IMG/VR virus record: IMGVR_UViG_3300032093_000013
Strand: one strand, 5' to 3'
From: a virus
DNA length: 64,000 bases
Numbering within the stretch: the stretch's first letter is position 1; the number at the start of each line of letters is the position of its first letter. The notes below the pieces were generated by a model that worked only from the letters and a program-made list of their open reading frames with translations, did not search any database and had not been told where the DNA came from. Below, piece by piece: positions 20,460 through 49,793 of this stretch. Position numbers and translations under genes: made by a program.

Positions 20460-20538
20460 GGGTCGTTTGCGGTTGACTTGTTAAGTGTAAGGGGTCGGGT
20501 GGGGTCTCAGGGGGCAGGGTGTGCCACCTGGTGAATTG

Positions 20539-21126
20539 TCACCCCAGCAGGACGGCAGTGGGCAGGGGCAGGAACTGCAACCACTTTTGAGCAGGTTTCA
20601 CAATGCCCATTTGCGACAGAATGCAGTTATCTTCACCGATAGAAAGTTGCAACTGAGAGAAGGAATCTTTGCGACCAGAGGAAGACTTCCAAACGTTAGA
20701 TTTGGTGAGATTGGTATCAATCAAAACCATACCAAAGTTGTCGATTTGATTATCACTGAAGGTGTACTTAATCGACCACACAAGGTTAGTCTTTTTGCCA
20801 CCAAAGTGAGAGGTTTTGTTACCAGTGGCAAAGGACGATTTAGACTCGCCGCCCATCAATTTGAACTCAACAGGTTGACCTTCGATGATGTAATCATACC
20901 CGGCAACTTCCTCACGGCGACCATCAATCCCAAGGCGACGGATTCCTTCCTCAATCACCTCATTTACAATGTATTGAAAGATTTTCGTAAAGTCTGCAGT
21001 TTCCATGCCGCTATCTTTAATCTGTTGCAGAGTCTTACCATACAGGCGGAACTCTTCACTAACGTAGCGGTTGGTTTCAGTCACCACAAAAGCGGTGAGT
21101 TTCTCAAGGGTGGCGGTCAGAGTCAT
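20539..21126 (-). CDS. PD-(D/E)xK restriction-endonuclease-like protein
   Basis: E...GYDYIIEGQPVEFK catalytic-type motif. Confidence 0.55.
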   Translation of the reverse strand: MTLTATLEKLTAFVVTETNRYVSEEFRLYGKTLQQIKDSGMETADFTKIFQYIVNEVIEEGIRRLGIDGRREEVAGYDYIIEGQPVEFKLMGGESKSSFATGNKTSHFGGKKTNLVWSIKYTFSDNQIDNFGMVLIDTNLTKSNVWKSSSGRKDSFSQLQLSIGEDNCILSQMGIVKPAQKWLQFLPLPTAVLLG

Positions 21127-21216
21127 CAGGGGGAATGCTGTGGAGGGTCGTTTCCCCTCCGATGCCCTTAGTATAGGGTATCGGTGCGGGCACCCTGGTG
21201 GGGTTGTGCCACCTAT

Positions 21217-22113
21217 TCAACTGGCACACTGAAAGCGACCGCTGTTGAAATTATGATAGGAGAATGCCTCACGATTCACCAACTTAAACATACCAAACTC
21301 ATTGGTGAGTACGTAACCTTCGGAGTCGATTCTCTCCTGCCCGATGTAAGCGGCAGGACCATCATTGCGGCACAGATAGAGACAATCTGCCTTGATAGAT
21401 TTCACCAGTGCCCACAACCCCAGCAGGTTAGGATCGCAGTCGAATTCACTATTCACAACAGGACGATTCTCACGGATGCAAGCATTCAGTTGCTGCTTAA
21501 TCTTTGCCGCTTCTTTATCAGTTGCAAAGGTCACAACAGTTGCCATTTGACGGGCAAACTTGCAGACTTCCTCTACATCAGCGAAGGACGTTTGACCGTG
21601 CTGAATGTATGCTTGAGGTTGCACGAACTTCACCGTCTCAGTATCATTCCAGATGCTACGATCGGGGAATGCTTGAGCGTCACGAAGATCGCTCTCAGCA
21701 TAATAGCAAGTGTGCGGTGCAATGATAATTTGCTGAGAAACTACCTCAGGAAACTTGTAAGTGATCGTGTTGGGAGTATACTCATCACTACCACCAAACC
21801 CAATAAAATCACCTTGGTAGATAGTATCGAAGCGAGGCAGATAATCAAAGCAAGCGTGAAGAATACGCGCAACTTCACCCTGATAGAATGAATCAATTTC
21901 TTCATGATTGTGAGCAATACGAATCTTTTTCTTGTTAAAGACTGCTTTGGTTCCTACAAAGAACTCACCATTGGCAGGATTCACACCCCAGACAATCGCA
22001 GGGGCGCCATCAATCTTGACGCTCAAGTTGCCAGGATTCACGAACCAATCCAGGGCAGAAAGGTCACCCGTGAGAATAGAATCTTCGGGGTGCTCAAGGT
22101 GGGTGTTTTTCAT
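21217..22113 (-). CDS. DUF6267-like protein with RNA/DNA ligase-type nucleotidyltransferase motifs
   Basis: NTHLEHPED N-terminus; KIDG (motif I), YQGDFI (III), EGYVL (IV), FKLVNR (V). Confidence 0.6.
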   Translation of the reverse strand: MKNTHLEHPEDSILTGDLSALDWFVNPGNLSVKIDGAPAIVWGVNPANGEFFVGTKAVFNKKKIRIAHNHEEIDSFYQGEVARILHACFDYLPRFDTIYQGDFIGFGGSDEYTPNTITYKFPEVVSQQIIIAPHTCYYAESDLRDAQAFPDRSIWNDTETVKFVQPQAYIQHGQTSFADVEEVCKFARQMATVVTFATDKEAAKIKQQLNACIRENRPVVNSEFDCDPNLLGLWALVKSIKADCLYLCRNDGPAAYIGQERIDSEGYVLTNEFGMFKLVNREAFSYHNFNSGRFQCAS

Positions 22114-22199
22114 GCTTTTAGTATTGCAGGGATTGGTGCCGATTGCAAGGGGGTGTGTGCCACTCTCTCAACTGGCACACGAGCAGCCGACTTGAGTAT

Positions 22200-22225
22200 A
22201 AAAAAAGGGGAGCATATTGCCCCCC
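22200..22225 (-). terminator. intrinsic terminator
   Basis: Minus strand GGGGGCAATATGCTCCCC followed by T7. Confidence 0.7.
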
Positions 22226-22231
22226 GATTCT

Positions 22232-22579
22232 TTATGCAAACATGAAACCATTGCTGAAATCGTATTCATTGTAGACAGGAGAAGTTCCTGCCTGCCCGAT
22301 GAACTTGTGGACGAACCACTTAAAGTTCTTTTGAAACACACATTCACCCTTGATTCCATGCTCTTGAAGAATCGCATTCAGGCGGGATTTGGTGGTCACA
22401 GACTGCCATCCACCGTCAAAGATTTGCACGAAGTTGTCACCAATGGTAGCAATGTGATTGCCGAAAAGAAACACTTTCGACTCGTTAGTTTCAGCGTCAA
22501 AGGTAACCTCAGTGTTGCCAGACTTCCAATTGCGGGAGTCACGAATGGCAGCATTCATCTGGGATTCAATCTTACGCAT
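22232..22579 (-). CDS. conserved phage hypothetical protein (MRKIESQMNAAI...TTKSRLNAIL)
   Basis: 115-aa ORF with its own promoter element and terminator. Confidence 0.75.
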   Translation of the reverse strand: MRKIESQMNAAIRDSRNWKSGNTEVTFDAETNESKVFLFGNHIATIGDNFVQIFDGGWQSVTTKSRLNAILQEHGIKGECVFQKNFKWFVHKFIGQAGTSPVYNEYDFSNGFMFA

Positions 22580-22649
22580 TTGGGGGTTTCCCTCTCAACA
22601 AATGTAGTATGGACCAGATCGGGGGGACTTGCAACCCCCCTTGTGCCAC

Positions 22650-23367
22650 TTACTGAACTGTCACACTCTCAATCAATTCTTCGACAACATCCTCATCATA
22701 AACATAGGCAATCTCACCGAGCACATCTTCTTCAGATTTACCTGCCAAACTCTCAACAAGCGTATCGTACACAAATTGCATCAAACATTTGGTGTCCATC
22801 TCATCAACAATACGCTCAGCGTAGTTTTCAATCAGTTGGTCAAGTTGTTGGGTAGTAAGGGTCATTTCAGAACTCATCAAGACAGTGACGGGAAGTTTGA
22901 TTCAGACGAATGAGAATGTCATTCCAAAACTCTTTATCCTCATCATCATTGTATTGGTTGTTATCTTCAACCAAACGAATCAGATTGTTAAGATCGTCGG
23001 GAGTGAGATAGTTCATCAGTAATCGTAGTTTGCGTTCAGGTACTCATTCACATCGAACTTCTCATCACGAAGTTCGGGAATGTCAAGGTCAAAGATTTCA
23101 CCAGGAGCATCTTGAATCTCAGACCAGAGTTCGTCAAACATGGTTTGTCTCTCAGGGACGAATGTAATGTATCAGGGATCCTGGCGCACCACAACCCCCT
23201 GTGTGCCACTCTCTCAACTGGCACAAGGTTTCTTATACAAACTCCGCGAGATAGTAATCTAAAGGCAACTCAAGTTCTGCTGCTTTAGATTCCCATTCAT
23301 CCCATTCTTCCTGAGAAGCATCATTGAAGAAATCCTCACGAGAATATTCAAAAACAGGACCACACAT
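22650..23367 (-). CDS. four acidic micro-ORFs (22650-22865, 22867-23016, 23016-23141, 23233-23367)
   Basis: Manual translations, e.g. MFDELWSEIQDAPGEIFDL and MCGPVFEYSREDFF...KAAELELPLDYYLAEFV. Confidence 0.55.
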
Positions 23368-23506
23368 TCGAATTAATTGCGACAACGAAGGTAATGTAAA
23401 CCATCACGTGGCAGATATCAACCCCTACTGTGCCAGATTCTCAACTGTCCTCATTCTCAATAACGAGGACCTTATTGAGAATAGGTCCAATCTTTAAACT
23501 GCCACA

Positions 23507-23789: not shown

Positions 23790-23956
23790 GAGCTCGTCGA
23801 GATTGTGTGATGTGACTTGTATATTGTAGCATAAGGCTCGTCGAGATTGCAATAGGTGTGTGCAGATCTCGACGAGATTCATACGATAATATATATGAAT
23901 CTAGAGCGTTCTAGACGAGTTCTGATGTGGATCTCGTAACAGAATGTCTCGACGAG

Positions 23957-23985
23957 ATTCTATCATGCTTCTAGAAGAATGTCAA
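23957..23985 (-). promoter_or_regulatory. sigma70 promoter TTGACA-17-TAGAAT with extended -10 TG
   Basis: tgtcaa 23980-23985, attcta 23957-23962. Confidence 0.75.
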
Positions 23986-24034
23986 GTCTCGTCGAGTTCT
24001 TGTGAGGGTCTGGGGATTTTTATGGGGGCGGGGG

Positions 24035-24063
24035 TTGACAAACTGCTCTTCTTATGATACGCT
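24035..24063 (+). promoter_or_regulatory. sigma70 promoter TTGACA-17-TACGCT with extended -10 TG, on + strand
   Basis: ttgaca 24035-24040, tg-a-tacgct 24055-24063. Confidence 0.6.
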
Positions 24064-24084
24064 CGCTAAGGTCACAAGTCCTGG

Positions 24085-24140
24085 AGGCATTAAACAAGAC
24101 TCAAAGGCATTAAACAAGACTCAGAGGCATTTATAAGACT
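24085..24140 (+). repeat. tandem repeat, 20-bp period, about 3 copies (AGGCATTAAACAAGACTCAR)
   Basis: Units start at 24085, 24105 and 24125; the third is degenerate. Confidence 0.85.
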
Positions 24141-24349
24141 TATAATCCTCTACATTTATTCTATTCTCAACAATAATACTCAATTGATTCTCAATAATAT
24201 TCATCTTATTGAGAATGTTACAACAAACACATTTATATTTTTTAATACCTTTTTTAATTAAATTTAAGTTAAAACACTATAAAACTGGCATAATCTCAGT
24301 ATTTTGGCATCCTTGAGTCTTTACATACTTCTCCCAATGAGTAGCATCT

Positions 24350-27300
24350 TCAATCGTATAGAAAACTGCGGTTTGCTTTGAGAATGCTTTCTTTTTGGGT
24401 TTCAGGTAGATGACTTGATACTTCATAATAATACAAATTAATAGTTGGTCCGTCGTTCCAATGTCTTATGACCCCTGCGATAATGAATAGATTAGTAAGA
24501 AGATAAGTACCGAATATAACAGTCCGTATATGAGCAACGTGGTCTGATTCTCTGTCATTTTTACTTGCTTTCTCCCCAATCGCTTTTGCCCAGTATCTCC
24601 ACAGTGTTTTTCTTTTCTTCATAGATAGACTCTCTTGATTTGATATAAGTCAGTTCTTTCCATTGATTATGATAACACAGGACCATCAAACGATCATTGC
24701 GATGAATGGAACATGCCTCATAGTTCTCTTCATTTTTTGGTTTGACCCCTATCTCAATCGTAATGTAGTCATTGTCCTTGAAATAGACCCATCCTTCAAT
24801 ATGAGGTTTCCACTTTACATAATGATTAACTTGTGGTTCATACATATGCCGCTTCTAATGGAGTTTGCTTGGGAACCATTGCCGAATAAGGTGATGTTCG
24901 TTCTATACTAACAGCGTTCCCGATCTTTCCTGAGTTGATGGGGGAGTAATAGGTTCTGGTTTTGGTATTATAGAATCCCCAAATACAACGAACGGCATCA
25001 CCCAGATTGTAATCAAACCTACAATCGTAATGAATCCAGATAGCAATAACATTGCGTTTAAACTCTGTCTGCTCATAATACATTCCTTTCGGTGCTTGGT
25101 GTGGAAATTCAATCGTTGTCATAAACAGCACGAAGACGATTGGGGGGATAACCTGCAGACAAATAATTGTTAAGGAGTAGGTCACACTGCTCCTTTGTTA
25201 ATTGCCTTGCATCCTCTTCAATCAATTCCCATCCGGTGGTTGTCAATTCTAAAATGCGATAAAGTTGTGTCACGTCGTAAATGCCTCCAGAATACCAGAT
25301 TCATAATCATCTTGAAGTATGAATTTTTGAGCATTCACAACTCTTTCCATAATTCGATCCGTATAGCGATCGTCGAAGGATTCTTCATTCGCAAGAATCT
25401 CAAATGCTTCCGTATCAGATTCGGCAATCAAGTTAATCAGACCGCCATACTCACTGGAAGGAAAAGGAACCCAGTAATCGACAATATAAAGAGATTTCAT
25501 TGTTATGTGTAAATTACTCCTCTATTTTAGTGTATTTGCTGTATCCTGTCAAGTTACAAAGTTGTCGCTCAATCTCAAACCTGATGGGAAACAAATGTGA
25601 TGAGAAGAATCCAGCATACTGCCCATCCTTGAGAAGATTGTAAATGTTCTCAACCTGCATCTGTGCCAGAATCAATTTTGTCTTTTCATCCATTACACAA
25701 ACTCCGAAATGTAGTAGTCTACGGTGACTTCCAGTTCTGCTGCTTTTTGCTCATAGAAGTTGTCAGTGTATTGTTTGGCAGAAACCCATGCTTCATGATT
25801 AAACTCTTCAACCTCAGCGTGTTTCATAAAGTCCTCAAATGCAGACATAAATTGTCGAATATCTTCATCGTTCATTGGTACATCCAATCGTTTGGCAATA
25901 ATAGGACTCATACAACTTTTGGTCACGTTGTATGAGAAAGGCATTGTATCCAAAGAAAGCAATCAGAAACACAACACCAACAAAAACATATTTGGGTGAA
26001 AGATTCATTCGCATTCAAGATCGTAAGAAACAGCAGACATCATCTCAGACATTAGTTTTGACCGAAGTTTGTGAACATCATACTCAATCAGTTCGGACAA
26101 GTCATCCCAATCCTGATAATACGTGAACACATTCAACATTGCACCCAGTTCAGTCGTTGAAAGAGACATCAGCAAGCACCATAGAAAGGATTACCCAGTT
26201 GAGGCAGATCGGAGTTGTCACCAGTTTCGGTATAACCCAGTGCCAGACGCTCACGAATCGCAAGAGTCTTCTCAACACGATTCAGAAACTTCTTGGAGAT
26301 TTGATCCACACCTTTCCAAGACAGAACCTGCAGACACCATTCTTGGCTGATGTCACCGTAGGGGGTCTTCACAGGGTAGTATCCGACCAGCATCGTGCCG
26401 TCTGCAGACTGGAGAGTGGGGAAGGTGGTCATGGAGTGTCCCTCGATTACCTTGTAATTATAGGTCAGAAGGACGGCACCACGTCGTTGCGTAGACCAGT
26501 TTGCGAACTGTCCATCTGCTCAAAGACCGTGTAAAGTTTGTTGTACAGTGCTGGTACACTTCCATATTCTCTTGCGATTTGATTCTCATCACGGAGATTC
26601 AATAACTGAAGTGCGGATAGAATTACACCAACTTCATGAACATTTAGATTAACATTTGCTTCGGTCATTTCTTTTCAGTCTCCTTTGCTACAGGTTTAGG
26701 TGTTGTGTAAGGAACTCTACCAGTCTCATTGTACATCAGAATGTCGTATTTGAACTTACATTCCAATGGTTTTTGATTACACATTTTCAGTGTGTCATTG
26801 TGTGATGATTGTGAATAAAAACCACCACCAGTGATAAATCCAAGCATTGCGATTAAAGCAAAACTAGGATACAAAACAACTTCTTTCATGATTCAATCCC
26901 AACTAACATTTTGAAGAAGAAAACCAGGCATCACCATACTCCAGGCACCCTCCTGATTGATACCACCAACTTTATATTCCCACTTATAAGCAAACTTATT
27001 ATGACTGTCCCAAGTCATAAAACCTTTCTCCTTATCAAACCAAGATTTGATAGTCAGACCAAACTTGTTAGAAAAGATATTGCGAGTGCGAAGTGCTCCA
27101 CCAGTTTCGCGGGTTTCTACTACTTTACACACATCATGATAGGTTTGAAGACTTGATTCTAAGGCACAAGGAGTTTCATATGTAAAGGGGCGATATGTTT
27201 TAGGTTTTGCTGGTGCGGTCTGTGCCAATGCAGGAGAGGCAAACAGCAGGGCAGTCAGCAATAGAAGTTTTTTCATTCTTCAGATTCGTCAAGTGCAAGT

Positions 27301-27740: not shown

Positions 27741-27827
27741 GAAGCGGGTGTTTCCCCTTGACTACCCTTGTATTATAGGGCAATACAGGAGACAGCGCAG
27801 TGCCCCCTGTGCCAGTTTTTGAATTGG

Positions 27828-28661
27828 TCAGTTCAGGGCGTCAAAGACAGTGCTTTGTGGTGTAATGTCCTGACACAACTCCCAGTAGGTTTGGTCAATC
27901 TCAAATCCAATATACTTACGGTCTGCTTTGATTGCCATTCTTGCCGTTGTGCCACTGCCCATAAATGGATCTAAAACAAGGTCACCAGGATTGGTCCAAG
28001 TGATAATATGATCGTAGGCAAGTTGCTCTGGCATGGTAGCAGGATGCTCATATGCTCTTTTATTGGATTGTCCAAATCCACCACTATTCTTGATTTTCCA
28101 GATATTCGTACGAGCACCAAACTCCTTGATTTCTTTTGTCTTTTCGTCTGTAATCTCCAGACTTCCATCCTTCTTCCGAGCACGTGCATTTCCCCAGGAC
28201 TTATGCCCTGCCCAGGCATTTGGTTTGTCCATGATAATATTCACCGTCTTGGGTTTGCCTTTGCTCAGAATAAAACAATACTCAAATGCCTGCGAATAGC
28301 GCAGCGACTTTTCACCAGCAGCAAAAGCAATTCCTGTCTTTTCGTAAATCATGGTATCATGCAGACGCAATCCGCACTCATCCATAAAGTAAAGTGCCTG
28401 GCGAAAACTACTTCCAGTTTCGCCACCATCAATTGTTGCGTCCCCAACATTCCACATGATAACCCCACCAGGTTTCAATACTCTGGCAAGTGCTTGTGCA
28501 ACATCTTTAAAGACATTAAAATCCCACTTGGAGGAATCGTTATACGTTCTTAAATCATCATATGGAGGAGAGGTTACACACAAATCCACAGATTCTGCAT
28601 TCATGGCATTCATGCCATCAACACAGCTATCATTATAAACTCGGTTTGTCTCCATAGTCAT
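27828..28661 (-). CDS. DNA amino-methyltransferase (N4-C/N6-A, beta class)
   Basis: TSPPY (motif IV) precedes HPATMP and DPFMGSGTT (motif I); IGFEID. Confidence 0.9.
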   Translation of the reverse strand: MTMETNRVYNDSCVDGMNAMNAESVDLCVTSPPYDDLRTYNDSSKWDFNVFKDVAQALARVLKPGGVIMWNVGDATIDGGETGSSFRQALYFMDECGLRLHDTMIYEKTGIAFAAGEKSLRYSQAFEYCFILSKGKPKTVNIIMDKPNAWAGHKSWGNARARKKDGSLEITDEKTKEIKEFGARTNIWKIKNSGGFGQSNKRAYEHPATMPEQLAYDHIITWTNPGDLVLDPFMGSGTTARMAIKADRKYIGFEIDQTYWELCQDITPQSTVFDALN

Positions 28662-28712
28662 CTAAGATTGAAACTACTATTATAGCAGAATGTAAGCATG
28701 AAATGCAACTTA

Positions 28713-29102: not shown

Positions 29103-29126
29103 GAATCTGATGTGTAATAAGAGTAA

Positions 29127-29600
29127 TTATGCCACCAGTAGGCGGTTGGGGAATAACTGTGCCACTTGCGAATTAGTCCACCCATTCTTCTCAAATAGGT
29201 ACTCAAGATATAGGGTTTCTTCTTGCTCCCGTGCCTCAATTTCGTGTGGTTGATGCCAATAGTCGTAATTTTCAACGGGTTCTTTACCATAATACATTTT
29301 TCCACGCTTGGACCGCAGCGAACCGACTACCCATTGTCGCAGGTGGACCAGTTCGTGTAAAAGAGTTTTTATATACAACTCCTCCTCCATATGGGTCTGA
29401 AGTTCAATCAGAAACTCACGGGGACGATAGGATTCTCCCACATAGTCACAGTATCCATAAACTTCCTCACGTTTCAAACCACGATGAAGAATCTCCACCT
29501 CAATCTTATGACGGGGCAGAAACTTATTCAGAAACCAAGTGGTAACGTCCTCACAGAGGAGTTTAGAATAACCGTATCCAGAATACGTGATGTAAGACAT
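29127..29600 (-). CDS. HExxH zinc metallopeptidase-like protein (start revised to MSYITY)
   Basis: TLLHELVHLRQW and YWHQPHEIEA (third ligand E). Confidence 0.75.
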   Translation of the reverse strand: MSYITYSGYGYSKLLCEDVTTWFLNKFLPRHKIEVEILHRGLKREEVYGYCDYVGESYRPREFLIELQTHMEEELYIKTLLHELVHLRQWVVGSLRSKRGKMYYGKEPVENYDYWHQPHEIEAREQEETLYLEYLFEKNGWTNSQVAQLFPNRLLVA

Positions 29601-29734
29601 TGACCCCAGTGCAAAAACCAAACGAAAGATGAAACAAAAAGCAGTTTTTCTTTAGAAGTCATCGGGAGTTTCAATTAACTTTCCAACAATTACTGCAACA
29701 GGAACAGAAAGTAAAATCCATAAAAGTATCCAAG

Positions 29735-29968: not shown

Positions 29969-29997
29969 TTTAAGGAATTGTTGAGTTGGGATAAACA

Positions 29998-30429: not shown

Positions 30430-30728
30430 TGCCTGGTTGCGTATGTGCTTATTATAAGGCACCTAGGCGCCTCTCAGAGCGTCAGTATGCCAGTTCAGGA
30501 TCTGGCACCCAATAGTCATCATTCTCCAAATAACCCATCCAATCTTGTGGATCAGACTCATACAGAGCGATCTCCCGCAGTTCATCAATCAGTTCAGACA
30601 GGTCCATTGGATTGGCGTTCAACTACCTCAGTATTATAGCATAAAACCCGCCTGGTGGGGCGGGTCTTAAAGAATCCTTATAACTTCCAGTTCAACGATA
30701 CCAAAGGTATCTATACAAATTCATATTT

Positions 30729-31109: not shown

Positions 31110-31192
31110 TGAGGTGTCTGTCGATTACCCACATATTATAAGGGGTCTCCCAGCGAACCAGGAGACCCCTTGTGCCAGTTTTCTAACTGTCC

Positions 31193-31405
31193 TCAGTCAT
31201 CATACACTCTACACTCTAATGCATCAGGATTGGCATCACAATAAAGTTCCAGTGGTGTAGGATCGTGAGAGTCTTCAGGATGGTGTTCTTTATATGTTTT
31301 AAGTGCTTCTAGTTCTTCTTCAGTATGTCTCCTTGATTGTGGAGAAATAGTTGGGTCACTCAAAAGGTCCTCGTCCTTTTGAATATGTTGATCGATGTTA
31401 TCCAT
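31193..31405 (-). CDS. cp12: CP12 Calvin-cycle inhibitor (cyanophage type; start revised to MDNIDQHIQKD)
   Basis: C-terminal LELYCDANPDALECRVYDD CP12 signature; no N-terminal Cys pair. Confidence 0.88.
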   Translation of the reverse strand: MDNIDQHIQKDEDLLSDPTISPQSRRHTEEELEALKTYKEHHPEDSHDPTPLELYCDANPDALECRVYDD

Positions 31406-31433
31406 AGTTTTGTAACGTGATGACATATTTATT

Positions 31434-36281: not shown

Positions 36282-36361
36282 AAGATTTTTGTTTCATAAA
36301 GTCATTATACAACAAAGGGCACCAGATTTCAAGTGCCCCTGTTCCAGTTTGCAAAGTGTCC

Positions 36362-37999: not shown

Positions 38000-40900
38000 T
38001 TTCAGTTCCTTCAACATACTTTTGTGCGTTGAGTGTTCTCCACATTACAATCTGTTCAAAGCATTCTCCAAGATTGCGACAAACGAAACTGTCTTCATCC
38101 ACCCCATCTGGACCATCCCAGATTGTAGCAGTGCATCCCTTTGTGGGATGTGAAGTAATAGTGATTTCAATCTTCATTATTCGTCAGTCCTACTTCAAGT
38201 CCTTCCATTCTTCCCATATTATAACCCATTTCGTGGATTTTTAGGGCAAACTCAACCATTTGTTTTTTGGTTGAAGAAAAATACTCTATTCCCTCATAAT
38301 CATCAACCAATACTTCAAGATGCTTTTCAGCGAGGTTAAGGATTTGTTCGTCAGTCATCAGGTGTCTGTGTGTATGAAAGTATTATACGACAAAGGGCAC
38401 CCGTTTTCAAGTGCCCCTGTGCCAGTTCTTCAAGTGTCCTTCTCTACCTCTTTTTCCAGTTGCTTATAAAGAGCATATTCGTATCCACACAAAAATGCAC
38501 TTTCCACCCAACTGATAAGAATTTGTTTCCTTTGGTTCTCATCCTCAATTTTTATGTCGTCCATAAAGTATTCATACCGATATGTAAATCGTCCATAAAA
38601 ATCTTCATAAAACCACTTGTTAAATGAAAGTTGAGCATCTTCTTGGGGGTCAAGATATTCATTAGCAGGATGTTTCATAGGTCTAATGGTTGTTGGGGGT
38701 CTCTTTTCCAAGTTTCCTTATAAGTAATCCACCGTTCCACACCAATTTCTTGTTGAGCAACCCAGTGTATTCCATTCTCATCAATCGCATCAAGATGATG
38801 AACACCAGTCTTGGGGCAGATGACTCTGGATACTTGTGTGAATTTTAGTTTGTTAGTCATTCTTCCAAACTCTTAATACATTTTTGAATCAGGTCATTCC
38901 ACCTCTTTGGAGTAAGTTTTTCATTAGCAGTTGAGGACCTGAATGGATACTTATACCAATAAAGTCTAAAGTTTTCACTTGGGATTTCAAAGTTAGGTTT
39001 ATCCATTTCATCTTCTTCATCACCCCAATAATAAGGACGGATGATAAAGAAATCGTTGGAGAAATGTGGAGTGTATCCATAATCTTTTTCTCCTGTCTTT
39101 TCTGTGATCGCATCAATCAGGATTTGGAATGGACCACCCATCCATTTCTCACGAGGAACACTATATTCCTCTGTGGGATTTCCAAATAACATTTGCCCAA
39201 GTTCAAGTTCAGTCATTTTCTTTCATACAAGGGTATTCAAAAGTTTCACCGATTTGTTCTAATAGAGTGCGGGCAAGGTGAATTTCACCGTAATCAATAC
39301 CCTCCGCAAAGGCATCATCATAACTACCAGCACTTGGAGTATAATCATCTCCATATACATCATAGCAGTGTTTTACCTCTGCGTATTCTTTGAGAACCTT
39401 GAGGAGAAGTGTGAGTTTTTGTTCGTTAGTCATAAGTTTTCACAATAGAACATTGTTCATAACCCTTATTGTATCCATCTTCATGAATTGCAAGGGCAAA
39501 CTTCAAGAGTTGTTCTTCCCAACACTCCCAGAAGTTTTCTTTCTCACCAGTGAAATCATCAAATCCACAGGTTTTAGCAAGTTCAAGTATTTGTTCGTTA
39601 GTCATAATTCATACTCATAATACGGTTGATTGCTGTTTTGTTTGCTTCTGGATTAGGAACATCTTTCAGTGAAGTAAGAACTTCCTCAATAGTTTCTTTA
39701 CGAATTGCAAGGGCAAACTTCAAAAGGTTTTCTGGTTTGTTTTCATCAATAGGATGAATTGCGAGAAAATGAGAAGCAAGTTTTAGAAGTTCTTCGTCTT
39801 TCATCGGTTGGTTGCTTATGAGAGTATTATAAGGCATTTTCAGGGACTTTGGGGAGTCCTTGTGCCAGTTCAAAAATTGTCCCACACCTCAAAGGTAATT
39901 CTTCTTGTGCGACTTGAATGGTCTATATTCATATTCATAGAATATACTTGTGCCTCTTTGTTTTTTAACTTTTCTGCAATTTGTAAGAAACCATCATTCA
40001 AACTCTCATTATCATAACAGGTGAGTTTTGTGATTGGAATAGTAGAAGTATCCCGAAGTTCTTCCAGTTCTTCTGCGTATGACTTTTCACCCTTATAATA
40101 ATCTGGTTTTGGTTCTTCTTTCTTTCCGTAGAGTTCTTCATATTTTTGTAGGAGAGGATTAGTCATAATAAGTGTTTGCGTGTCCGTAGTTCAAATAATA
40201 CCAGAACAATTCTCTCATTCTTTCTTCATCTTCAAATCCGTGAATATGGTTCCACATATGATTACTCCAAGAATACACACAATACTCAAAGAGATGAATT
40301 GAAGTATAGATGTTCCATTTCTTCCAAGTGTCTTTCTTGTTAGTCATTTCTTACACCGATGTAATGGAATACGAAGAAACTGAAAGAACCTTCCAATATA
40401 TCCTATCATATCTCCGCATTTAGGACAACGATAAGATGGGTGGGTCATTCTTTATCACCAAAATGTTCAAGTAAAGCACGAGCAAGTCCTCTTACGATTT
40501 CTTCATCATACCACCAATCCATACCATCACTCAAATAACCTTCAATAAATCCATCAAGTTCTTCATCTGTTGGTTTAGTCATTTCAATCCAATCAGTTTA
40601 GCAAAATCAGGAGTGATAGTAAGGTTTTGTTCTCTTACAAGATTACGAACTTCTTTACGGAGATGAAGATACTTATCTCGGTATTCTGTGAGATACTTTT
40701 GTGCTCGGTTCTTTTCATCAAAGTCCTTTTGGTGCTCGTAAGTTCTGGTTTCGTAGTATCTCATTTCTCATCCACCTTTGGTGTTTTACCTTTACACCAA
40801 ATAGTATGAAGTTCATCAACACGATTTTCCCAAATCATAGTATCTACAATATAGTCATATGGGGTTTCATAAGTGTCTTCATACACTTCTCTAATGAAGA

Positions 40901-43900
40901 TAGATTTATTTACTGATTGGGGGTATTTCATTTCTCATCCACCCATCTAATAGAAAGACATTTATCCATAAACCAACGAGTAATAGCATTTGGTTTATAA
41001 GGCATATAGAACCTCAAATAACCATTTCCAATCGTATAATAACCTTCGTGTTTATTTCCTTGTTTAATTACAAAACTGGAAGTAATATTACTACCATCAC
41101 CAAAAACAGAAATTTTAGAGTAATCTAATGTATATTTGAGTGGGAAAAATCCATTCTCACGGGCATACTCAAAGTCCTCATCCTGTTTCTTACAGAACTC
41201 CTCATACCTTTTTTTCTTATACAACCAATTGTGCCCTATCCTATATTCAAGATGAGTTTTCTCAATCAGTTTCTCAATCTTCTCATCAAGTTCTTGTTGG
41301 ATTTCTTCTAATGACTTGCGTGGTTCAGGAATATCAAGATAAGGTTTGATTACATCAAAATACTCAAACTCTTCGGTGTAATAAAAAGCACCACAAATAA
41401 AAGGAAGAATACTTTGAGGTGCTCCCACAAGTTTCTTTGGATTGAGTTTGTATCCTATTTTTTCAGTCATTTTGCCCTCATAGCAGTAATCACAGCATCA
41501 CGGGCACTTTTACCTTTTGCTTTATTCATAGGAAATCCACTACTCATAAATTTCCAATCACTTTCACCATTCATTTGGAGATTGTGTGGATGAAATTGAT
41601 TGAGTAGAAATTCAAGGATTTCTGTGTCTGTTGGTTCAGTCATTTTCTTCATCGGGTAGTTTTTCATTCAAATCAATACCATCTAAAACTTTATCAGACC
41701 ATTTTAGCACATTCTCAATCAGTTTATCATTAACTTCTTTTTTCTTTTCCACAAACTTTTCAATCAGTTCATCATCAGGGTCGTTGAGGATTTGTTTTAC
41801 TGGGTCTTTTTCTTCAATCATCAGTTTGAGTTGTTTGAGATTATCATAAAGTTCTTTTTGAAAATCATAACATTCAGTCAAATGTTCTATGTTATTGTCT
41901 TCAAAGTTAGTTTCCTCACGGATTTCCCAAGACAAACCATCCATATCTGCTGCGGTTTCTGTGAGAAAGTATTCAAGTGTTTCAAGTAAATTCATTTTCT
42001 AATCACAGCAATTACTTTACGATTTGGATACTTCTCTACAATTATATCACGAGCATCCTCATAGTCAATCGCATCCTTTACGGTTTCATAATACACAGTT
42101 TTATCTGCGTCATCCCAAGTTTGAACTTCGTAAGTCATTTCTTCTCCCAATTTGCTCTCACATCTTTATAAGGTTCTGCTTTCACTCCACCATAAGTATC
42201 AAAATGAGGTTTTGGGTCATTAGGTTGAGCAGTATGAACCAACTTTGTAATATTAGGAGAAATACCAGGATTACAAGGAATGGTTTGTTGAGGAGTGAGA
42301 GAAGTATAAGGAGGAATATAAGTGAGTGGAGATTTACTCAAATACTCTTCTACAATATTACAAGACCATCCATCCTCATAGAACTGCTTACCATAGAAAA
42401 TAGCATCTTCCTTATTTGGAAAGGAAGCAACATAAGTGTCGTTGTGATAGAGTGAATAAACTTTCATTTCAGTTCCTCAATAAGTTTCATAAGAGTTTTG
42501 ACGGATACTACTTGAGATTTCTTATCAACTCGTCCAGTTCCTCTAACTTCACTATGCTCATCAATCAAATATTGAAGAACAGCAGAAGCAATTGTTTGTG
42601 GGGAAGATTGTTCCATTGAAGACCAATCCCAACTCACTTCATTCAGTGTTTCAAGTAAAGTCATAATACCTCATTATCAAAGTTGTTTAGATAGTTCCAA
42701 AACCACAACATATCATCATCACTCACATATTCCTCATACCTTTTACCATATTCACTATAATAAATGTGAGGATACATTACTCTAAACCACCAATCAAAAC
42801 ACCATCTCCACATCAATCTTCGCAACCAAAACTGTTTGAGATTATATGAAAGTTTCATTTCAATTTACTCATACAAATAGAACAGAGACAATCATCAGTT
42901 TTAGGAACTCTAAACATTATGTGATTTCCAGAGCAACAATCTCTATCACCACAATTTCTACATTCATCACAAATCCATTCTTTTTGATTACGACATTTGA
43001 CGAAATCTTCAAGAGTATAGTTTTGAAGAAGATTAGTCATTTCAGGTGTCTGTGTGTATAAGAGTATTATAGGGCATCCAGAGGCACCCAGAGCATCCCC
43101 TGTGCCAGTTCTTCAAGTGTCCTCAATAATTGTCGAAGCAACCATCATCATAAGCCTTATCATAGATTTCTTGGGCAAACTTCACAAAGGCATCAAAGTT
43201 TCCAGAATACTCCCAACCATCATTCTCATCCCAATCTTCTTCAAAATGTTCTTTTACAAGTTGTAGGATTTGTTCGTCAGTCATTTTTCAATCACAAATA
43301 CAGATTGTTGAATAAGTTGTTTTGGAAAATAGACACTACCCTTGTCAGTTTCAAAGGTAAAGTAGGTCACATCCCCAATTTTTGATAGAAGATTACAAGC
43401 ATCAAGATAATCTTGCTCATCACCTTCTTTATCAACACTCTCAAAATCAACACTCTCAAAAGTTCCTTGAGGTGTGTGTGCGATGATTTTCATCAGTCTT
43501 TTTTGAAGAGTTTGTAGATTGCGTCTGCTACTGCGAGTGCTTCTTCTTTTTCCATACAAATATGATTTACTCGTTTTTCACTTGTATTCACACCAGAAGG
43601 AAGTTCCCAATAAGAAATGGTACAACCTTCAAATCCTACATCAAGGTGAGTGTCTTCTACGGTGTACCAAAAATCAGTGTGTTCCTGAATACGAACTTGA
43701 TTAGTGATTTCAATTGTCATAAGAGGTGTCTGTGTGTATGAGAGTATTATAAGGCATCCAGAGGCATCCAGAGCATCCCCTGTGCCAGTTCTTCAAGTGT
43801 CCTACATACCCAAGAGTTTTTTGTCGGCATCACTCAAAGAAGCAAGGTCTTTCTTCAGTTGTTGAAGTTTTCGTTCCTTTGCTTTTTCTTTCTCTGCCTT

Positions 43901-46173
43901 TTCTTTCTCCAGTTGTTTCATTCTCTTATTGTATTCTTTGTCGGTTTCTTCACGATGCTTGTAAAGATAATAGGCACCATCCTCATATGGTTCGCATTCA
44001 TATTCAAGTCCCACCCAACCAGCATCTAACTCTGCTTGAAGTGCGGCAATAATACTTTCAAGTGTTCCGTCAAAATCTCCCCAGTATTGTTGAGTTTCTT
44101 TGACTTGAATGCGTTCAGTCATTTCAGTTCTCCATAAGAAAGTTGTTGAATTTCTTCTCTATTCAAAGTTTTAACATAACCACGAGGATAGTCATTATCA
44201 TAAGCATTAAAGACAAAAACAGGAATGTTTCGTTCTTTACAGATTTGTTTGAACTTGTCTTCATTCAGTTCAAACTTACCAACATACTCAACATATGGAT
44301 ACATATCCCAAGATGCTACAAGTCCTCCTGGATAATAACCCCACTCAAACTCATCAAGTTCTTGAATGATTTGTTCTACATCTTGAATGTTTTCTGGATT
44401 AGTGTAGATGCGTCCGTATCCTTTGTAATTGAAGGCAGTCATTTCAGTTGTCCTCTATCAAACGAATGTTGTTTTCAATCTCACCTCTCATATCATAAAA
44501 ATACGATTTTCCCCTATCAAGAATAAAAGTATCATAATCTTCTTGGGTTGGTTCATCTTCCATTTCCATATCCTTCCAAACTTCCAAGAAATCTTCAACA
44601 GACATATGGTATTCCAGAGGAATGTATGCGACTTTGGGAATGATGTGGTTAGTCATTTCAGTCCAATCAGTTTAGAAAATTCAGGAGTAATGGTGAGGTT
44701 TTGTTCTCTTACAAGATTACGAACTTCTTTACGAAGATTTATCCACTTTTTGTAGTAATCTTGTGATGCTTTTTCTGCTCTGTTTTTAGCATCAAAGTCG
44801 CACTGGTGTTCGTAGGTTCTACTTTCGTAGTATCTCATTTAATCGTCACAGTTTGATTTTTGATTTGGCAAAGACGGGAAAGATTATCACCCGCAGTAGC
44901 AACTTGGAAGAAGTTGTAGTTAGTCCCACACTGTTCGTTGAGTGCTTGTTGAGTTGTAATGACTTTCATAACTCCTGTGATGGGAGCAGCAAGAAGAACC
45001 AAAACAACAGTACCAACAATCAAAACAGTCCAAGCATCCATAAAATCAAAGTTGTTGCGTTTCATTTCAGTTCTGGTGTTGTTTGAGGTGAAGTTGGATA
45101 CATTCCATAACATTATCAAGAGTTAGAGCACTACCCTCATAGTAGTAATCCATATTCATTACATCTGTGACTTTGAGTTTGTAATAAAAATCTCCATCAG
45201 AAGAATACTGATGAATGATGATGTCAGTTTCGTAGTTCATCGGTTTGTTTCTTATGAAGTCATTATAAGGCAAAAGGAGCACCTGTGGGATGCTCCTGTG
45301 CCAGTTCTTCAAGTGTCCTATTTCAGTTCATCTTCCTCTTTTTGAATAGCAGAGATAGCATTTAGAAACTCCAAACCATATTTACCTACAACCCAAGCAT
45401 CTTTATCCTCAAAGAACCTAGTACCGATGGTTCTCATATCATAGCCTTCTGTGCTTTTATTGAAGAAAGCAACGACATAGCAACTATCACCAGAGTCGTG
45501 AGTATACCACTTGACGAGTTCATACTTGTTGTTGACTTTACTCCAACGAAACTCTATGTTACGAAATCTCATTCTTCTTCCTCTTCATAAGGGAACATTT
45601 CATCATACTCTTCATCAGTGAGAGTCAGATACTGAACATCAGCATCTTTGTGCTCTTCGGCATACACTAACTGATAGTGAGCAAAACTACTTTCAGAAGT
45701 GCTAGCGTACTCTATGAGTCCATCAACAATACAAAGGTAATTCATTAGAGCACCTCCCAGTGTGCATCAGATTTGTCACCGAAACGATTAGTTCCAGTTC
45801 TTGTACTAACCCAAAAAAAGTATTTACGGTTTTCTGATGCCAAGAATAACTCACCACCAGTGTCCTGCTCTACAATACAGACAGGATTGTTTCCCATGAT
45901 ATTTGCTAATCTATTCTTCGCCTTGCTGCTTTTGGGTCTTACGGTTACTCTTCTCATTTTGGATCTCCAGTTTCAGTTTGCGAATACCAGTAATAAAGTA
46001 AGCAAAATCACGGGATTCAGTCACCCGTTTTTCTTCACCACAGACACCACATTTACCATTCCAGACAGATGAACAACCGACTGAATAAACACCATAAGTT
46101 TGACCACAATCCATACAAGTGGTGCCTGCCTGCTCAAGTCGTTTGAGTAGTGCCTTCTTCTCTTTGAGAGTCA
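37992..46173 (-). CDS. array of about 35 micro-genes (34-180 aa), mostly starting MT[DENK] and translationally coupled
   Basis: Track ORFs plus manually found 39426-39605, 40344-40448, 40445-40582, 41992-42138, 43123-43284, 45569-45745. Confidence 0.7.
43043..43803. repeat. near-identical direct repeat pair of about 80 bp (43044-43122 and 43724-43802)
   Basis: aggtgtctgtgtgtatRagagtattataRggcatccagaggcaYccagagcatcccctgtgccagttcttcaagtgtcc. Confidence 0.9.
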
Positions 46174-46206
46174 TAGGGGCGTTTCGTATAATGGTATTAT
46201 AGGGCA

Positions 46207-48435
46207 TCAGGAGGCGTCTTCAACGTCCTCTGTGCCAGTTTCCAAAGTGTCCTCATCGCCAGTAAGGTCTTTAAGTCTATTCATAAAGTCTTCATCAAGT
46301 GGATAGACCTTTTCTTCACCACGATCAATCCTATCACACATCTCCATCAGATATTCTAGAAACTCTTTGGGATATGTTTCATCCATATTAATGCTGCACC
46401 AGAACCACTGATAACATTCTTCATATGGATCGTCGTTTTTCAGCAGAGCATAATCAGCATAGTTTCCACTGATGAGATCTCTCCACATCTTAAAGTTGTT
46501 CCAGATCTCTCTCCAACCAGTCTGGAAACAATGTCCGAAGTAATACTCAAACCAGTTCAGTTTTTTCTTCATCAACACTCATCCATTCCAAGATAATCAG
46601 TCTCTTTTTCATCCACTTCCTCTAAATGGTCCCATCTCCAAGTGCGGGAAAGCAAATCAATATCAAACCCAAACTTATATGCCCAGAAGAGAATACCTAA
46701 AAGACCATTACTTCCCATTGTAATCTGAAGATAAGGTGAAGAAGGATAATCATTCCAACTTACAGAAAACTGAAACAAACTCCATCGTTTAATATTAACA
46801 ACTTGAACATAAACTTCGTGTCCAAAGTCATAGCGATGCTTAAATTTAATTAGATTCATTGCTCTTTAATAACACAAGATGTAGTGCATTTAAGGTCACC
46901 AGAAGATCCAGAGACCGTAGATGTATGGTGTGGTGTTTTTTCTGGTGTCAGATTATATGATACAATAGCGGACACAAAAAACGCAAGTGCAGGGATTGCG
47001 ACATATTGTAGATAAGTTTTACTGCTCATTATTGTTTTCCTCAAAGTCAAACCATTCATACAGAGAGTTCATCGCACCATCAACCACACAATCAACCACA
47101 GCATCTTCGTGTGGGTTCTCTACGTGTTTATGGGCACGATTGTATCCATAACGGACACCTTCTTCCAGTGCCATCTCCAATACCTTACGAAAGTTAGGTT
47201 TCATATCAATAAGGAAGAGATTTCAGACCATCCAGAACTTCCTGAAAGCGTTCGGCACGACTCTTGTGGTGCTCTACATTCTCCTCAAGCACACTCACAA
47301 TATCGTCCAGGACAACATCCAGAGACGCATCAGTATCAAAGTATTGTTGGATTGCTTCGGCAAGATACCGCCGCCGACTCCATTCCATACTATAGGGTTT
47401 GTAGTCCATAATCAGAGTGTATATGCGGGTATTATAAAGGTTTTTTCAGATATTGTCAATCTCTTGTTCGCCAATCGGTTTCGTCATCATCACGTTTAAA
47501 CCAATCATGCAGTTCATCTGGGTTGTCAAAACCTCTTCTACCAAATCTTTCGTGCCCTAAACCACCAATATCCATTGAGTTTAGGAAATCATCCATTTCA
47601 TCCATATTGGGATTTTCCGCTTTACGTCTTGCCTGGCGGAGCATTGTTCCAGCAGAGCGATTTGCCTTTGCAAGTTTCTCTGCCCAGATCATATCTTCTA
47701 AACTTACTTCTTTATGAAGTACAATCTTCTCACAGATTGCTTCCAGTCTCAATCTGTACTGCGTAGAGAGCATATGTATTACCAGATGTAGTGTTATTTA
47801 TTTTTATATTCGTCCATTAACTCTTTTGCGAGTTTCATAGAACGACGCCACATTAAATATTTTACCACAGGATTACGTGGATTGTTTAACAACCACCACT
47901 TTTGTTTCTCATAGTTAGACTTTGCTAACTTAAGCACATAATAAAAGGCAGCAGCGATACTATCATCTGTTGCGATAAAGTATGCCGCTACTGCAAATAC
48001 GATAAACCAAGCATAATAAGACATCATCTAGGTCTCATAGTTTTATTATTTAACCAAGAAATTGATCTAGACTGGAGACCGATGCGCCTTTTGCGGACTT
48101 TTGAATGTAGGTTTTGGCGGACTTGTAATTGTTTGCTAGATGAACCTGCTGTCCGTTGTGAATGATAATAAACTTTTTACCAAATGGCACTGCTGCCCAC
48201 ATACCATCTTTAGTGACATAACCTTGTGGATCTGATGGTTTTGGATTTAAGATTCCTGGACGATCTACAAAAGGTTTCTGAAAGTTTTCGCTCATCCGAA
48301 TACAGCGGTCACACCAATAACTTTAGCACTTGGATTACGTGCTAGAGCAGTCCGCCTGGCATCATCATAATCACGTGCCTCGACAATCTCATCAAAGACT
48401 TTGCCAGCGACATAGAGTTGGACTTTGCAGCGCAT
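46207..48435 (-). CDS. run of small conserved hypothetical ORFs (46207-46578, 46572-46859, 46856-47032, 47019-47204, 47206-47409, 47456-47773, 47794-48027, 48050-48295, 48292-48435)
   Basis: Co-oriented packed ORFs; perfect TTGACA-17-TATAAT promoter at 47431-47459. Confidence 0.65.
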
Positions 48436-48474
48436 TAGAGTTTCTCCTGATGTGTAGGTAGTATAGCAGAAAAG

Positions 48475-49704
48475 TCAGCGCCTGACAATGCTGACGGCAA
48501 CCTCACCTTGCTTGAAGATGATGTCCACCACATTCTGGACTGCCTTCGCAGTGCCCGTAGATGCCTTGTCAAAGACCGGGCAGACCACCAGACCATAGGA
48601 TTTAGTGTAGGACGACAGGTCGCCTGCCTGAATGGCGCCAGAGCGGATTCCAGCGGCGTCTTGGGGGTGCAGACGCAGCGTCCGACCAACGGTCTGACCG
48701 ATGCCCACAACGTCCATAGAGCGCAAGAACACGACCGCTTCCAGAGCAGAAATGTTGATGCCTTCTGCCAGAATGCTGTGATGCAGGACCACAAACTTTT
48801 TGTCAGGGTCTTTGCCCCAAGCATTCAGAGTGTCAAAAAACACCTCACGATTGACCTTCTGCCCATCAATAAATGCACCGTGCTTGGCAGTAATGTGCAG
48901 CACAGAGTAACCTTGCTCGGCAATCTGGTCTGCAAAGTCAGATTCAGACAGCAGAGCAATGATGTGGCGAGTTGCCTTTGCACACACCAGAATCTTATCG
49001 ACAGGATTGTCCTGAATGATTTGCATCAGATACTCACAGTCCCGTTGAGCAATATCCTCACCCTTGACGGACAGACGCATTGGAGCAGTAATCACTTTGG
49101 GAGGAATGATATAGCCACCCTGTACCAATTCAGGAGCAGGAACTTTGGCGATGATATTACCGTAGACAGCAACATCATTCATACCAGGTTTGGCAACGGT
49201 GGCAGAATACTTGGGAGTTGCAGTAAAGAAGTAGCAACGCTTTGCTTCAGCAGCAAAATGCTCTACAGCAGGAAAGAAGTGACGTTGAACGCTATTGTGT
49301 GCCTCATCAAAGTAAATCGTATCCACCTCAATATCTGCCTTTGCAAGTTGCTGCAGAGAATTGTAAGTGGTGAAAATCAGTTTGTGACCTTGAGTTTGCT
49401 CATACCAAGTGCGAATCGCATTGGGACGAGTGCTGCTGAAGTGATGAGTCTCACCACTGTGAATGTGCATCACAGAAGCATTAGTGATAAACTCAAGGTA
49501 TTCAGCAGACAACTGCTCTGCCAGGAGGATGCGCGGCGCCGTCACTACAATAGTCTTGGGGGTGCTAGACTGAAACACACGAATAGCATCAAAAATGCCC
49601 ACGTTGGTCTTACCACCACCGGTAGGAAACACACAGATACCTTTGAGATGCTGTGCCAGAGCATCCAGAGCAACTTGTTGGTGAGGGCGAAGTTGGTACA
49701 TCAT
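48475..49704 (-). CDS. superfamily 2 DExH helicase (ResIII-like)
   Basis: LRPHQ, PTGGGKT, DEAH, TATP, LAEGINI, QTVGRTLR. Confidence 0.9.
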   Translation of the reverse strand: MMYQLRPHQQVALDALAQHLKGICVFPTGGGKTNVGIFDAIRVFQSSTPKTIVVTAPRILLAEQLSAEYLEFITNASVMHIHSGETHHFSSTRPNAIRTWYEQTQGHKLIFTTYNSLQQLAKADIEVDTIYFDEAHNSVQRHFFPAVEHFAAEAKRCYFFTATPKYSATVAKPGMNDVAVYGNIIAKVPAPELVQGGYIIPPKVITAPMRLSVKGEDIAQRDCEYLMQIIQDNPVDKILVCAKATRHIIALLSESDFADQIAEQGYSVLHITAKHGAFIDGQKVNREVFFDTLNAWGKDPDKKFVVLHHSILAEGINISALEAVVFLRSMDVVGIGQTVGRTLRLHPQDAAGIRSGAIQAGDLSSYTKSYGLVVCPVFDKASTGTAKAVQNVVDIIFKQGEVAVSIVRR

Positions 49705-49734
49705 CTCTCAATTCAATACACATATTATAGCAGC

Positions 49735-49758
49735 AAAAAAGGGGTCTTGCGACCCCCC
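49735..49758 (-). terminator. intrinsic terminator embedded in the promoter element
   Basis: GGGGTC-GCAA-GACCCC then T6, downstream of the tail fibre gene. Confidence 0.75.
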
Positions 49759-49793
49759 TGTGCCAGTTTGTCAAGTGTCTTAAGTATCAAGAC

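Follow-up and report, generated by a model that had tools for sequence, protein, structure and literature searches.

The stretch of DNA considered here, hereafter the window, comprises 64,000 nucleotides from a virus (IMG/VR record IMGVR_UViG_3300032093_000013), and its accessory region is punctuated by copies of a compact cassette in which a 22-bp dyad lies at a nearly constant distance upstream of a promoter-like -10 box. The window corresponds to positions 16383-80382, read on the reverse strand, of a viral contig 94.8 kb long that is estimated to be 38% complete; window numbering is used throughout, and the minus strand, which carries nearly every window gene, is the coding strand. The nearest named relatives of the contig DNA are the freshwater Synechococcus myoviruses S-SRM01 and DSL-LC03, of the family Kyanoviridae, and the source phage is a T4-like cyanomyovirus belonging to a freshwater lineage of the Kyanoviridae.

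About 100 small genes occupy the interval at 19.5-50 kb that separates the baseplate and tail-fibre modules, among them those for a UvsW-type helicase, a DNA methylase, CP12, Kyano_Gp96 and several proteins with domains of unknown function (DUFs); no psbA gene was found in the contig. Where neighbouring genes of this region meet without a cassette, they mostly overlap by 4 nt, and thus each cassette appears to head a unit of about five small genes, giving about 20 such units. On the minus strand, the cassette consists of the dyad RKGMCA-N10-TGGCACA, a spacer of 30-31 nt, and a -10 box of the sigma-70 type. The copies are listed below, each named by the position of the T of TGGCAC in its proximal half (the half nearer the -10 box), and are followed by the other features to which the text refers.

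49724-49781, minus strand: cassette 1 (copy 49765); dyad 49760-49781, terminator-like hairpin 49739-49758 followed by T6, -10 box TATAAT 49729-49724
46196-46253, minus strand: cassette (copy 46237); dyad 46232-46253, -35-like TTGAAG, -10 box TATAAT 46201-46196, ATG 21 nt past the -10 box
45262-45319, minus strand: cassette (copy 45303); dyad 45298-45319 overlapping the TAG stop codon of the upstream gene, hairpin 45275-45297 followed by TTTT, -10 box 45267-45262
43746-43803, minus strand: cassette (copy 43787) without a -35 sequence; dyad 43782-43803, -10 box 43751-43746
43066-43123, minus strand: cassette (copy 43107) without a -35 sequence; dyad 43102-43123, -10 box 43071-43066
39826-39883, minus strand: cassette (copy 39867); dyad 39862-39883, -10 box 39831-39826
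38382-38440, minus strand: cassette (copy 38424); dyad 38419-38440, hairpin 38394-38417, -35 sequence TTGAAA, -10 box 38387-38382
36304-36362, minus strand: cassette (copy 36346) with proximal half TGGAAC; dyad 36341-36362, hairpin 36316-36339, -35 sequence TTGAAA, -10 box 36309-36304
31135-31193, minus strand: cassette (copy 31177); dyad 31172-31193, 14-bp hairpin 31140-31171 in place of a -35 sequence, -10 box 31140-31135
30451-30508, minus strand: cassette (copy 30492) with proximal half TGGCAT; dyad 30487-30508, -10 box 30456-30451
29126-29180, minus strand: off-register copy (29164); dyad 29159-29180, gap of 27 nt, -10 box CATAAT 29131-29126
27772-27830, minus strand: cassette (copy 27814) with weak distal half TGACCA, downstream of the DNA methylase gene; dyad 27809-27830, hairpin 27777-27806, -10 box 27777-27772
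26457-26514, minus strand: cassette (copy 26498) with proximal half TGGTCT; dyad 26493-26514, -10 box 26462-26457
23393-23451, minus strand: cassette (copy 23435); dyad 23430-23451, -35 sequence TTGATA, -10 box TACATT 23398-23393
23166-23224, minus strand: cassette (copy 23208) with a perfect 6+6 palindrome; dyad 23203-23224, hairpin 23174-23199, -10 box TACATT 23171-23166
22606-22664, minus strand: cassette (copy 22648); dyad 22643-22664, hairpin 22621-22640 containing the -35 sequence TTGCAA, -10 box CATACT 22611-22606
22120-22178, minus strand: cassette (copy 22162) with a perfect palindrome; dyad 22157-22178, -35 sequence TTGCAA, -10 box AATACT 22125-22120, DUF6267 gene downstream
21170-21227, minus strand: cassette (copy 21211) with a perfect palindrome; dyad 21206-21227, -10 box TATACT 21175-21170
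20484-20542, minus strand: cassette (copy 20526); dyad 20521-20542, -10 box TACACT 20489-20484
20092-20150, minus strand: cassette (copy 20134) with proximal half TGACCC; dyad 20129-20150, -10 box TAGAAT 20097-20092
30633-30700, minus strand: decayed copy; terminator-like hairpin, -10 box TATAAT 30638-30633, remnant of the distal half-site only
48475-49704: UvsW-type helicase gene, downstream of cassette 1
1-16 kb: baseplate wedge proteins, structural arm
50-59 kb: tail and tail-fibre proteins, structural arm

When the dyad is scanned for as a perfect palindrome with up to three mismatches, there are 41 matches, as compared with 13.0 +/- 3.8 in shuffled sequences. For a strict composite of dyad and -10 box (GNCA-N10-TGGCAC, 30-31 nt, TAnnnT), 200 Markov simulations gave a mean of 0.005 occurrences, whereas the minus strand has 12 and the plus strand one. 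The sequence TGGCAC is exact in 15 copies, and a weight matrix adds five variants, with TGGAAC, TGGCAT, TGGTCT and TGACCC as the variant proximal halves, for a total of 19 firm copies, one copy with a 27-nt gap and, in addition, the decayed copy, whose homologues in the related contigs L014 and L035 retain the dyad. A preliminary description of this DNA had counted 18 copies, which was about right, copy 20134 lying just outside the range it considered. All 20 copies fall within 20.1-49.8 kb and are co-oriented with the genes, and a weight-matrix scan of the rest of the contig, that is, the structural arms and the remaining 30 kb, returned no copy above threshold, in agreement with the earlier remark that the structural arms are free of them. 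The gap of 30 or 31 nt between dyad and -10 box, also noted previously, is seen in 19 of the 20 copies and places the centre of the dyad near -53.5; copy 29164, with its 27-nt gap, has lost 3 nt in comparison with its homologues in contigs L014 and L147, where the gap is 30 nt. On the plus strand, a -10-like box is found at the right distance from a perfect palindrome only for the copy at 23219.

The -10 box is TATAAT in 13 copies, the others having TACATT, TATACT, CATACT, TACACT, TAGAAT or AATACT, and the ATG of a co-oriented small gene follows 20-26 nt past the box, leaving a leader of about 15 nt. Because a consensus -10 box at a fixed distance from the dyad is followed so regularly by an initiation codon, the cassettes can be regarded with high confidence as promoters of the small accessory genes, as the preliminary description had proposed. 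The dyad would extend from -64 to -43, assuming a transcription start 7 nt beyond the -10 box. The distal half of the dyad often begins inside the preceding gene's stop codon or immediately past it, creating arrangements such as TGA-GGACA, TAG-GACA and TAA-GACA. In the case of copy 22162, the ATG of the DUF6267 gene (22113) is just 6 nt past the -10 box, and hence the DUF6267 mRNA may be leaderless.

The region between dyad and -10 box is far more variable. A TTGNNN sequence is present at the -35 position, 16-17 nt before the -10 box, in about 7 of the 20 copies, and the others are G+C-rich there; the earlier statement that many copies are without a good -35 sequence is thus borne out, and fits a dependence on a bound factor. 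Hairpins with a minimum free energy of -8 kcal/mol or lower form in 12 of the 20 spacers, as compared with 5% of random 32-nt control windows of the region, and 10 copies fold with z < -2 against shuffles. The four hairpins named in the preliminary description were reproduced (31140-31171, 36316-36339, 45275-45297 and 49739-49758), but its view of each unit as terminator, operator and promoter combined holds for the promoter anatomy and for the hairpin of the 12 copies, and for the terminator in few copies only: a proper T run, of at least four Ts, follows the hairpin only in copies 49765 and 45303, with a weaker run in 38424 and 36346, such that only two to four copies carry hairpins that look like terminators.

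Two dialects of the cassette can be distinguished. In an island of 50% G+C at 20-23.5 kb, the palindromes are perfect or nearly so and a -35 sequence is present, and elsewhere the distal half is AGGACA or AAGACA; perfect 6+6 palindromes number four. The island is itself unusual, since positions 18000-23500 are 49-50% G+C as compared with 31-40% in the genome, and are 88% identical to contig L014. The high G+C content, together with the perfect-palindrome cassettes, hints that this module was exchanged with a higher-G+C phage. A link between the inner GTTG/GTTA of the dyad and host clade was set aside, being confounded with G+C content. With the exception of two paralogous pairs, the spacers within the window share a median identity of 32% while dyad and -10 box are retained, indicating that selection maintains these two elements, rather than recent copying. 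Exact words of 25-36 nt are nevertheless common to some cassettes; for instance, copies 43787 and 43107 are paralogues with 93% identity over 83 nt and an exact 36-nt word in common.

The same arrangement recurs in related phages, as a scan of this and related genomes, suggested earlier, makes clear. The genome of S-SRM01 has 13 copies in forward orientation at 54-90 kb, in its small-gene region. The Syn9 genome, in which the motif had been suspected to be known already, has copies at 48559, 51001, 51212 and 52997 with the same dyad, a 30-nt gap and a -10 box, located before gp73, gp78 and gp79 and near gp89/gp90 in a small-gene region adjoining the helicase gene. In IMG/VR, one version of the dyad matched at least 118 loci, and the weight matrix applied to the fetched loci gave at least 386 sites with a -10 box in at least 115 loci; among the sites found, the gap was 30 nt in 218 cases, 31 nt in 148 and 29 nt in 20. 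In the resulting logo, nothing is conserved upstream of the dyad, the A after TGGCAC is invariant, a weak TTG appears at -35, and TGC appears two bases ahead of the -10 box. A hairpin of -8 kcal/mol or lower is predicted in 36% of 356 unique related spacers, a hairpin with a T run in 13%, and a TTG at -35 is seen in 35%. As a sequence feature, then, the cassette is ordinary for this phage group.

Literature searches for the motif sequence yielded nothing useful, and the S-SRM01 genome paper makes no mention of promoters or motifs. However, Doron et al. 2016 reportedly described a novel regulatory element that controls transcription of the early genes of Syn9 and P-TIM40, with host-like promoters said to drive the middle genes and the elements said to be abundant in T4-like cyanophages. 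Given the occurrence of the cassette in Syn9, S-SRM01 and more than 100 uncultivated viral contigs, it is very probably this early-gene promoter type. The protein that reads the dyad would decide the start of the programme in the most abundant large viruses of picocyanobacteria.

In all likelihood, the cassettes are accessory promoters of an early type, used by RNA polymerase carrying the host primary sigma factor together with a dimeric factor on the dyad, for which PlmA is a candidate. The fixed geometry, the two-fold symmetry and the frequent lack of a -35 sequence are suggestive of a dimeric protein that contacts RNA polymerase. Under this scheme, the primary-sigma polymerase of the host would read the -10 box, and the protein, held by the constant spacing on one face of the helix, would replace or reinforce the missing -35 contact. 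The factor would be a host protein already there at infection, for which PlmA (PMM1637), a member of the GntR family, is the best candidate. In part of the copies, the hairpin may end or stabilise the upstream transcript, and the repetition of the cassettes may provide short homologies for gene swapping. The sequences themselves document the anatomy, its statistics, its conservation and the likeness to host promoters, whereas the transcription starts, the early timing, the binding of any protein and the activation are inferred.

The candidacy of PlmA derives from the yfr2 promoters of the host. The GntR regulator PMM1637, of the PlmA family, binds CGRE1, a palindrome of 21-22 nt that is described as restricted to marine picocyanobacteria (Lambrecht 2018, PMC6191309), and raises the activity of the yfr2 and yfr4 promoters (PMC6191309). 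The proximal edge of CGRE1 lies at -55 to -57 from the yfr2 start (PMC6191309), a position matched in the phage, where the shared half-site stops 55-56 nt short of the inferred start. For comparison, host yfr2 promoters were rebuilt from genomes, the sample comprising 39 Cyano-1/Yfr2 genes of picocyanobacterial genomes reached via psbA matches, with 110 nt scanned upstream of each. The best phage-matrix match lies above the 99.9th percentile of 237,000 background positions in 29 of the 39 promoters. Of these 29 matches, 25 are located 58-63 nt upstream of the point where the RNA match begins, which puts them 29-31 nt ahead of a -10-like box; about 0.2 such cases would be expected by chance. 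Over 23 columns, the host consensus reads agGACAGTTgAA.aAgcG.CcC and that of the phage agGACAgTTgA.aAACTGGCACA; the resemblance comes from the distal half together with the inner bases, and the proximal TGGCAC half is peculiar to the phage. PlmA is thus the best candidate because the outer half-site (GGACA-GTT or GTGMCA-GTT) shares the register of the yfr2 element, and PMM1637 binds and activates yfr2. In the genome of WH7803, just one gene belongs to the GntR family, and it has the size of PlmA; no GntR domain was found in the present contig or in the complete Syn9 and S-SRM01 genomes.

The host loci show some further variation. A freshwater host, Cyanobium sp. N.Huapi 1H5 (L259, G007:C1:181314), has a yfr2-like gene that, at 38.9 bits, falls short of the Rfam gathering score of 41, with a GGGCCA-GTT half-site in the usual register. 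At four other yfr2 loci (L262, L261, L271 and L290), a full CGRE1 palindrome covers the core promoter, 15-35 nt upstream of where the RNA match begins, either besides or replacing the element near -60, which agrees with the published MIT9313 exception.

Several observations count against early promoters activated by PlmA. The label 'early' itself derives from the position of the cassettes and from the element reported by Doron et al. 2016. The likeness to the host is confined to the distal half, which scores 9.4 bits in host promoters and 12.3 in the phage, the proximal half scoring -1.6 in the host versus 15.9 in the phage; and a motif scan of host genomes, as the preliminary description had suggested, showed no enrichment of the full phage-type dyad in the five genomes covered. 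The order of the half-sites is also everted, the phage having GTGMCA-GTT, 4 nt, AAC-TGGCAC and CGRE1 having AAC-TGKCAC, 1-2 nt, GTGMCA-GTT. The half-site centres are consequently 13 bp apart in the phage and 10 bp in the host, so one rigid PlmA dimer could not bind both alike, and the different arrangement implies that the binding mode of PlmA would differ from that on CGRE1. In gel shifts, moreover, the yfr5 promoter, which has one conserved half, was not shifted (PMC6191309). Finally, with the contig 38% complete, a virion-borne or phage-encoded factor may lie elsewhere in the genome.

The palindrome of the CGRE1 type (AAC-TGKCAC, 1-2 nt, GTGMCA-GTT) was not found in the cassettes, although in three of them the proximal half and the first hairpin arm make up versions of it with two or three mismatches (TGGCAC-A-GGGGCACTT), at 36331-36349, 38409-38427 and 46222-46240; in the cassette at 38382-38440, for instance, the proximal half and the next 10 nt form such a palindrome with two mismatches. 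These three promoters would thus each present three half-sites in a row.

On balance, PlmA is a tentative candidate for the dyad-binding factor, to be held with well under even confidence. A fuller proposal, which is doubtful on present sequence comparisons, is that the early promoters are built on the host yfr2 upstream element and switched on by host PlmA, with a phage-specific second half creating a stronger dyad. If so, early phage expression would be wired to host light and nitrogen signalling via PipX-PII-PlmA, which would offer a molecular entry point to the dependence of cyanophage infection on host physiology.

A phage protein, either delivered with the virion or among the first to be expressed, might instead bind the dyad, as an activator or as a shut-off switch of the early promoters. 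The full dyad, and mainly its strongly conserved proximal part AAC-TGGCACA, is a feature of the phage alone, with a negative score in the yfr2 promoters of hosts, and a phage factor would be in keeping with both the lack of enrichment in host genomes and the retention of the element across phages of marine and freshwater hosts, since no identical host protein would be needed. A DNA-binding fold could also be hidden among the small ORFan proteins. However, none of the 99 predicted proteins of the region matches a Pfam DNA-binding family, no GntR domain was detected in this contig or in the complete Syn9 and S-SRM01 genomes, and promoters of the first genes expressed must work before any phage protein has been synthesised, which leaves only a virion-packaged one to serve them. 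A phage-encoded reader is therefore judged unlikely.

A second alternative is that the cassettes are mainly recombination substrates of the PeSL type, the promoter and stem-loop cassettes of T4-type phages, with the dyad conserved for deletion, insertion and exchange of small genes among co-infecting phages. Synteny with 17 related contigs was examined, giving 242 boundaries at which indels or replacements begin or end; these contigs are not independent of each other, and conserved motifs anchor the alignment ends. Cassettes, with 7.5% of the sequence, contain 61 of the 242 boundaries (3.4-fold by footprint), and each cassette junction has 3.05 boundaries versus 1.37 for a plain gene junction (2.2-fold); 13 boundaries lie within 2 nt of the outer dyad edge. 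In comparison with contig L014, the small gene between cassettes 23435 and 23208 is replaced, and homology stops exactly at the outer dyad edge at 22664. The exact 25-36-nt words common to some cassettes could likewise serve exchange. Plain gene junctions, however, are enriched alike per base, with 108 of the 242 boundaries (45%) in 14.8% of the sequence (3-fold by footprint), and the non-independence of the relatives and the anchoring of alignment ends apply to the cassette counts as well. PeSL-like gene shuffling at the cassettes is compatible with these data, which support it weakly and do not single the cassettes out. As recombination would also leave the fixed distance to the -10 box, the single orientation and the two-fold symmetry unexplained, and as the defining features of PeSLs are lacking (see below), this function is decidedly improbable as the main one.

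RNA polymerase could also read the dyad with no separate factor, through its alpha C-terminal domains or a sigma region, as a strong UP-type element similar to the extended upstream regions of T4 early promoters. The position of the element, at -64 to -43, is that of a UP element, its distance from the -10 box varies by no more than 1 nt either way, and its outer half-site occurs in strong small RNA promoters of the host. UP elements, though, are A+T-rich and not palindromic, whereas the conserved bases here contain G and C and are two-fold symmetric, with four perfect 6+6 palindromes, and a specific protein binder has been shown for the host element (PMC6191309). Direct reading by the polymerase is accordingly given very little weight. 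A sigma-54 reading of TGGCAC (TGGCAC-N5-TTGCW, with GG and GC 10 bp apart at -24/-12) was rejected: TTGC, where present, is 8 nt away and not 5, a sigma-70-type -10 box follows at 30 nt, and cyanobacteria are, to our knowledge, without sigma-54.

The cassettes are not the only promoters in the region, and the earlier claim that they organise it as a whole was overstated. Promoters of the sigma-70 type without a dyad are found at 47459-47431 (a perfect TTGACA-17-TATAAT) and at 28708-28679 (TTGCAT then TATAAT), possibly representing the 'host-like', perhaps middle, class. In addition, a box of the T4 late type, TATAAATA, at 37153-37146 lies directly behind a terminator-like hairpin (37178-37161) and precedes a gene for 252 amino acids (36362-37120), pointing to a late promoter within the accessory region. 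Generic scans for sigma-70 promoters and terminators did not rise above shuffled sequences (70 promoters versus 56.8 +/- 7.5, and 13 terminators versus 10.7); the promoter scan detects only those cassettes that have a -35 sequence and is otherwise uninformative on them.

Elsewhere in the window, a gap of 394 nt without genes (23883-24276) contains a 20-nt tandem repeat in 2.3 copies (24085-24131), several inverted repeats of the TTCTCAATAA/TTATTGAGAA type and a promoter-like site, TTGACA-17-TAGAAT, and may be a small RNA or control locus. The structural arms include giant open reading frames of 3894 amino acids (2258-13942, baseplate arm) and 1936 amino acids (53348-59158, tail-fibre arm), and an open reading frame resembling a homing endonuclease lies at 59188-59811. 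Beside tRNA-Leu(TAA) and tRNA-Met, ARAGORN reports an 88-nt tRNA-Ile (anticodon TAT) at 60885-60972; this third tRNA is doubtful, as the Rfam scan of the window found two tRNAs only, confirming just the tRNA-Leu(TAA) and the tRNA-Met.

Among known systems, the cassettes resemble activator-dependent promoters, such as those of class I CRP, in the combination of a palindrome at a fixed helical phase, a good -10 box and a poor -35 sequence, with the difference that the dyad is centred near -53.5 as compared with the classical CRP positions of -41.5 and -61.5. The preliminary description drew a parallel with the PeSL cassettes of T4-type coliphages, which are also described for vibriophages (Arbiol 2010, PMC2839356; Comeau 2014, PMC4122927). 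It holds in that both are compact, repeated units of promoter and stem-loop, situated between the small genes of T4-like hyperplastic regions and near indels between relatives; boundaries are in excess at the cassettes here, about as much per base as at plain junctions. The parallel fails in the architecture itself: in PeSLs, a stem-loop lies upstream of a complete -35/-10 promoter, after an A+T-rich stretch and with no dyad (Comeau 2014, PMC4122927), whereas here the -10 box is always present and the -35 sequence only in the minority of copies noted above, the dyad is upstream, the hairpin, when there is one, is placed between dyad and -10 box over the -35 position, and a T run follows only a minority of the hairpins.

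The cassettes resemble the element reported by Doron et al. 2016 in being abundant, conserved and located before small genes of the accessory region in T4-like cyanophages. The cassettes of the window differ in coming from a freshwater lineage and in having two dialects, and what is added here is a freshwater example with 20 copies. With CGRE1, the cassettes share the 9-nt half-site GTGMCA-GTT, common to the host yfr2 promoters and the phage distal half in the same register to the -10 box, as well as a weak or absent -35 sequence. They differ in that the partner half is upstream in the host, with the centre near -65, and downstream in the phage, with the centre near -53.5, many host yfr2 promoters having a single half-site only. 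This quantitative match of outer half-site and register to the yfr2 promoters, whose binding activator is known, is the second addition to the earlier picture of the cyanophage element.

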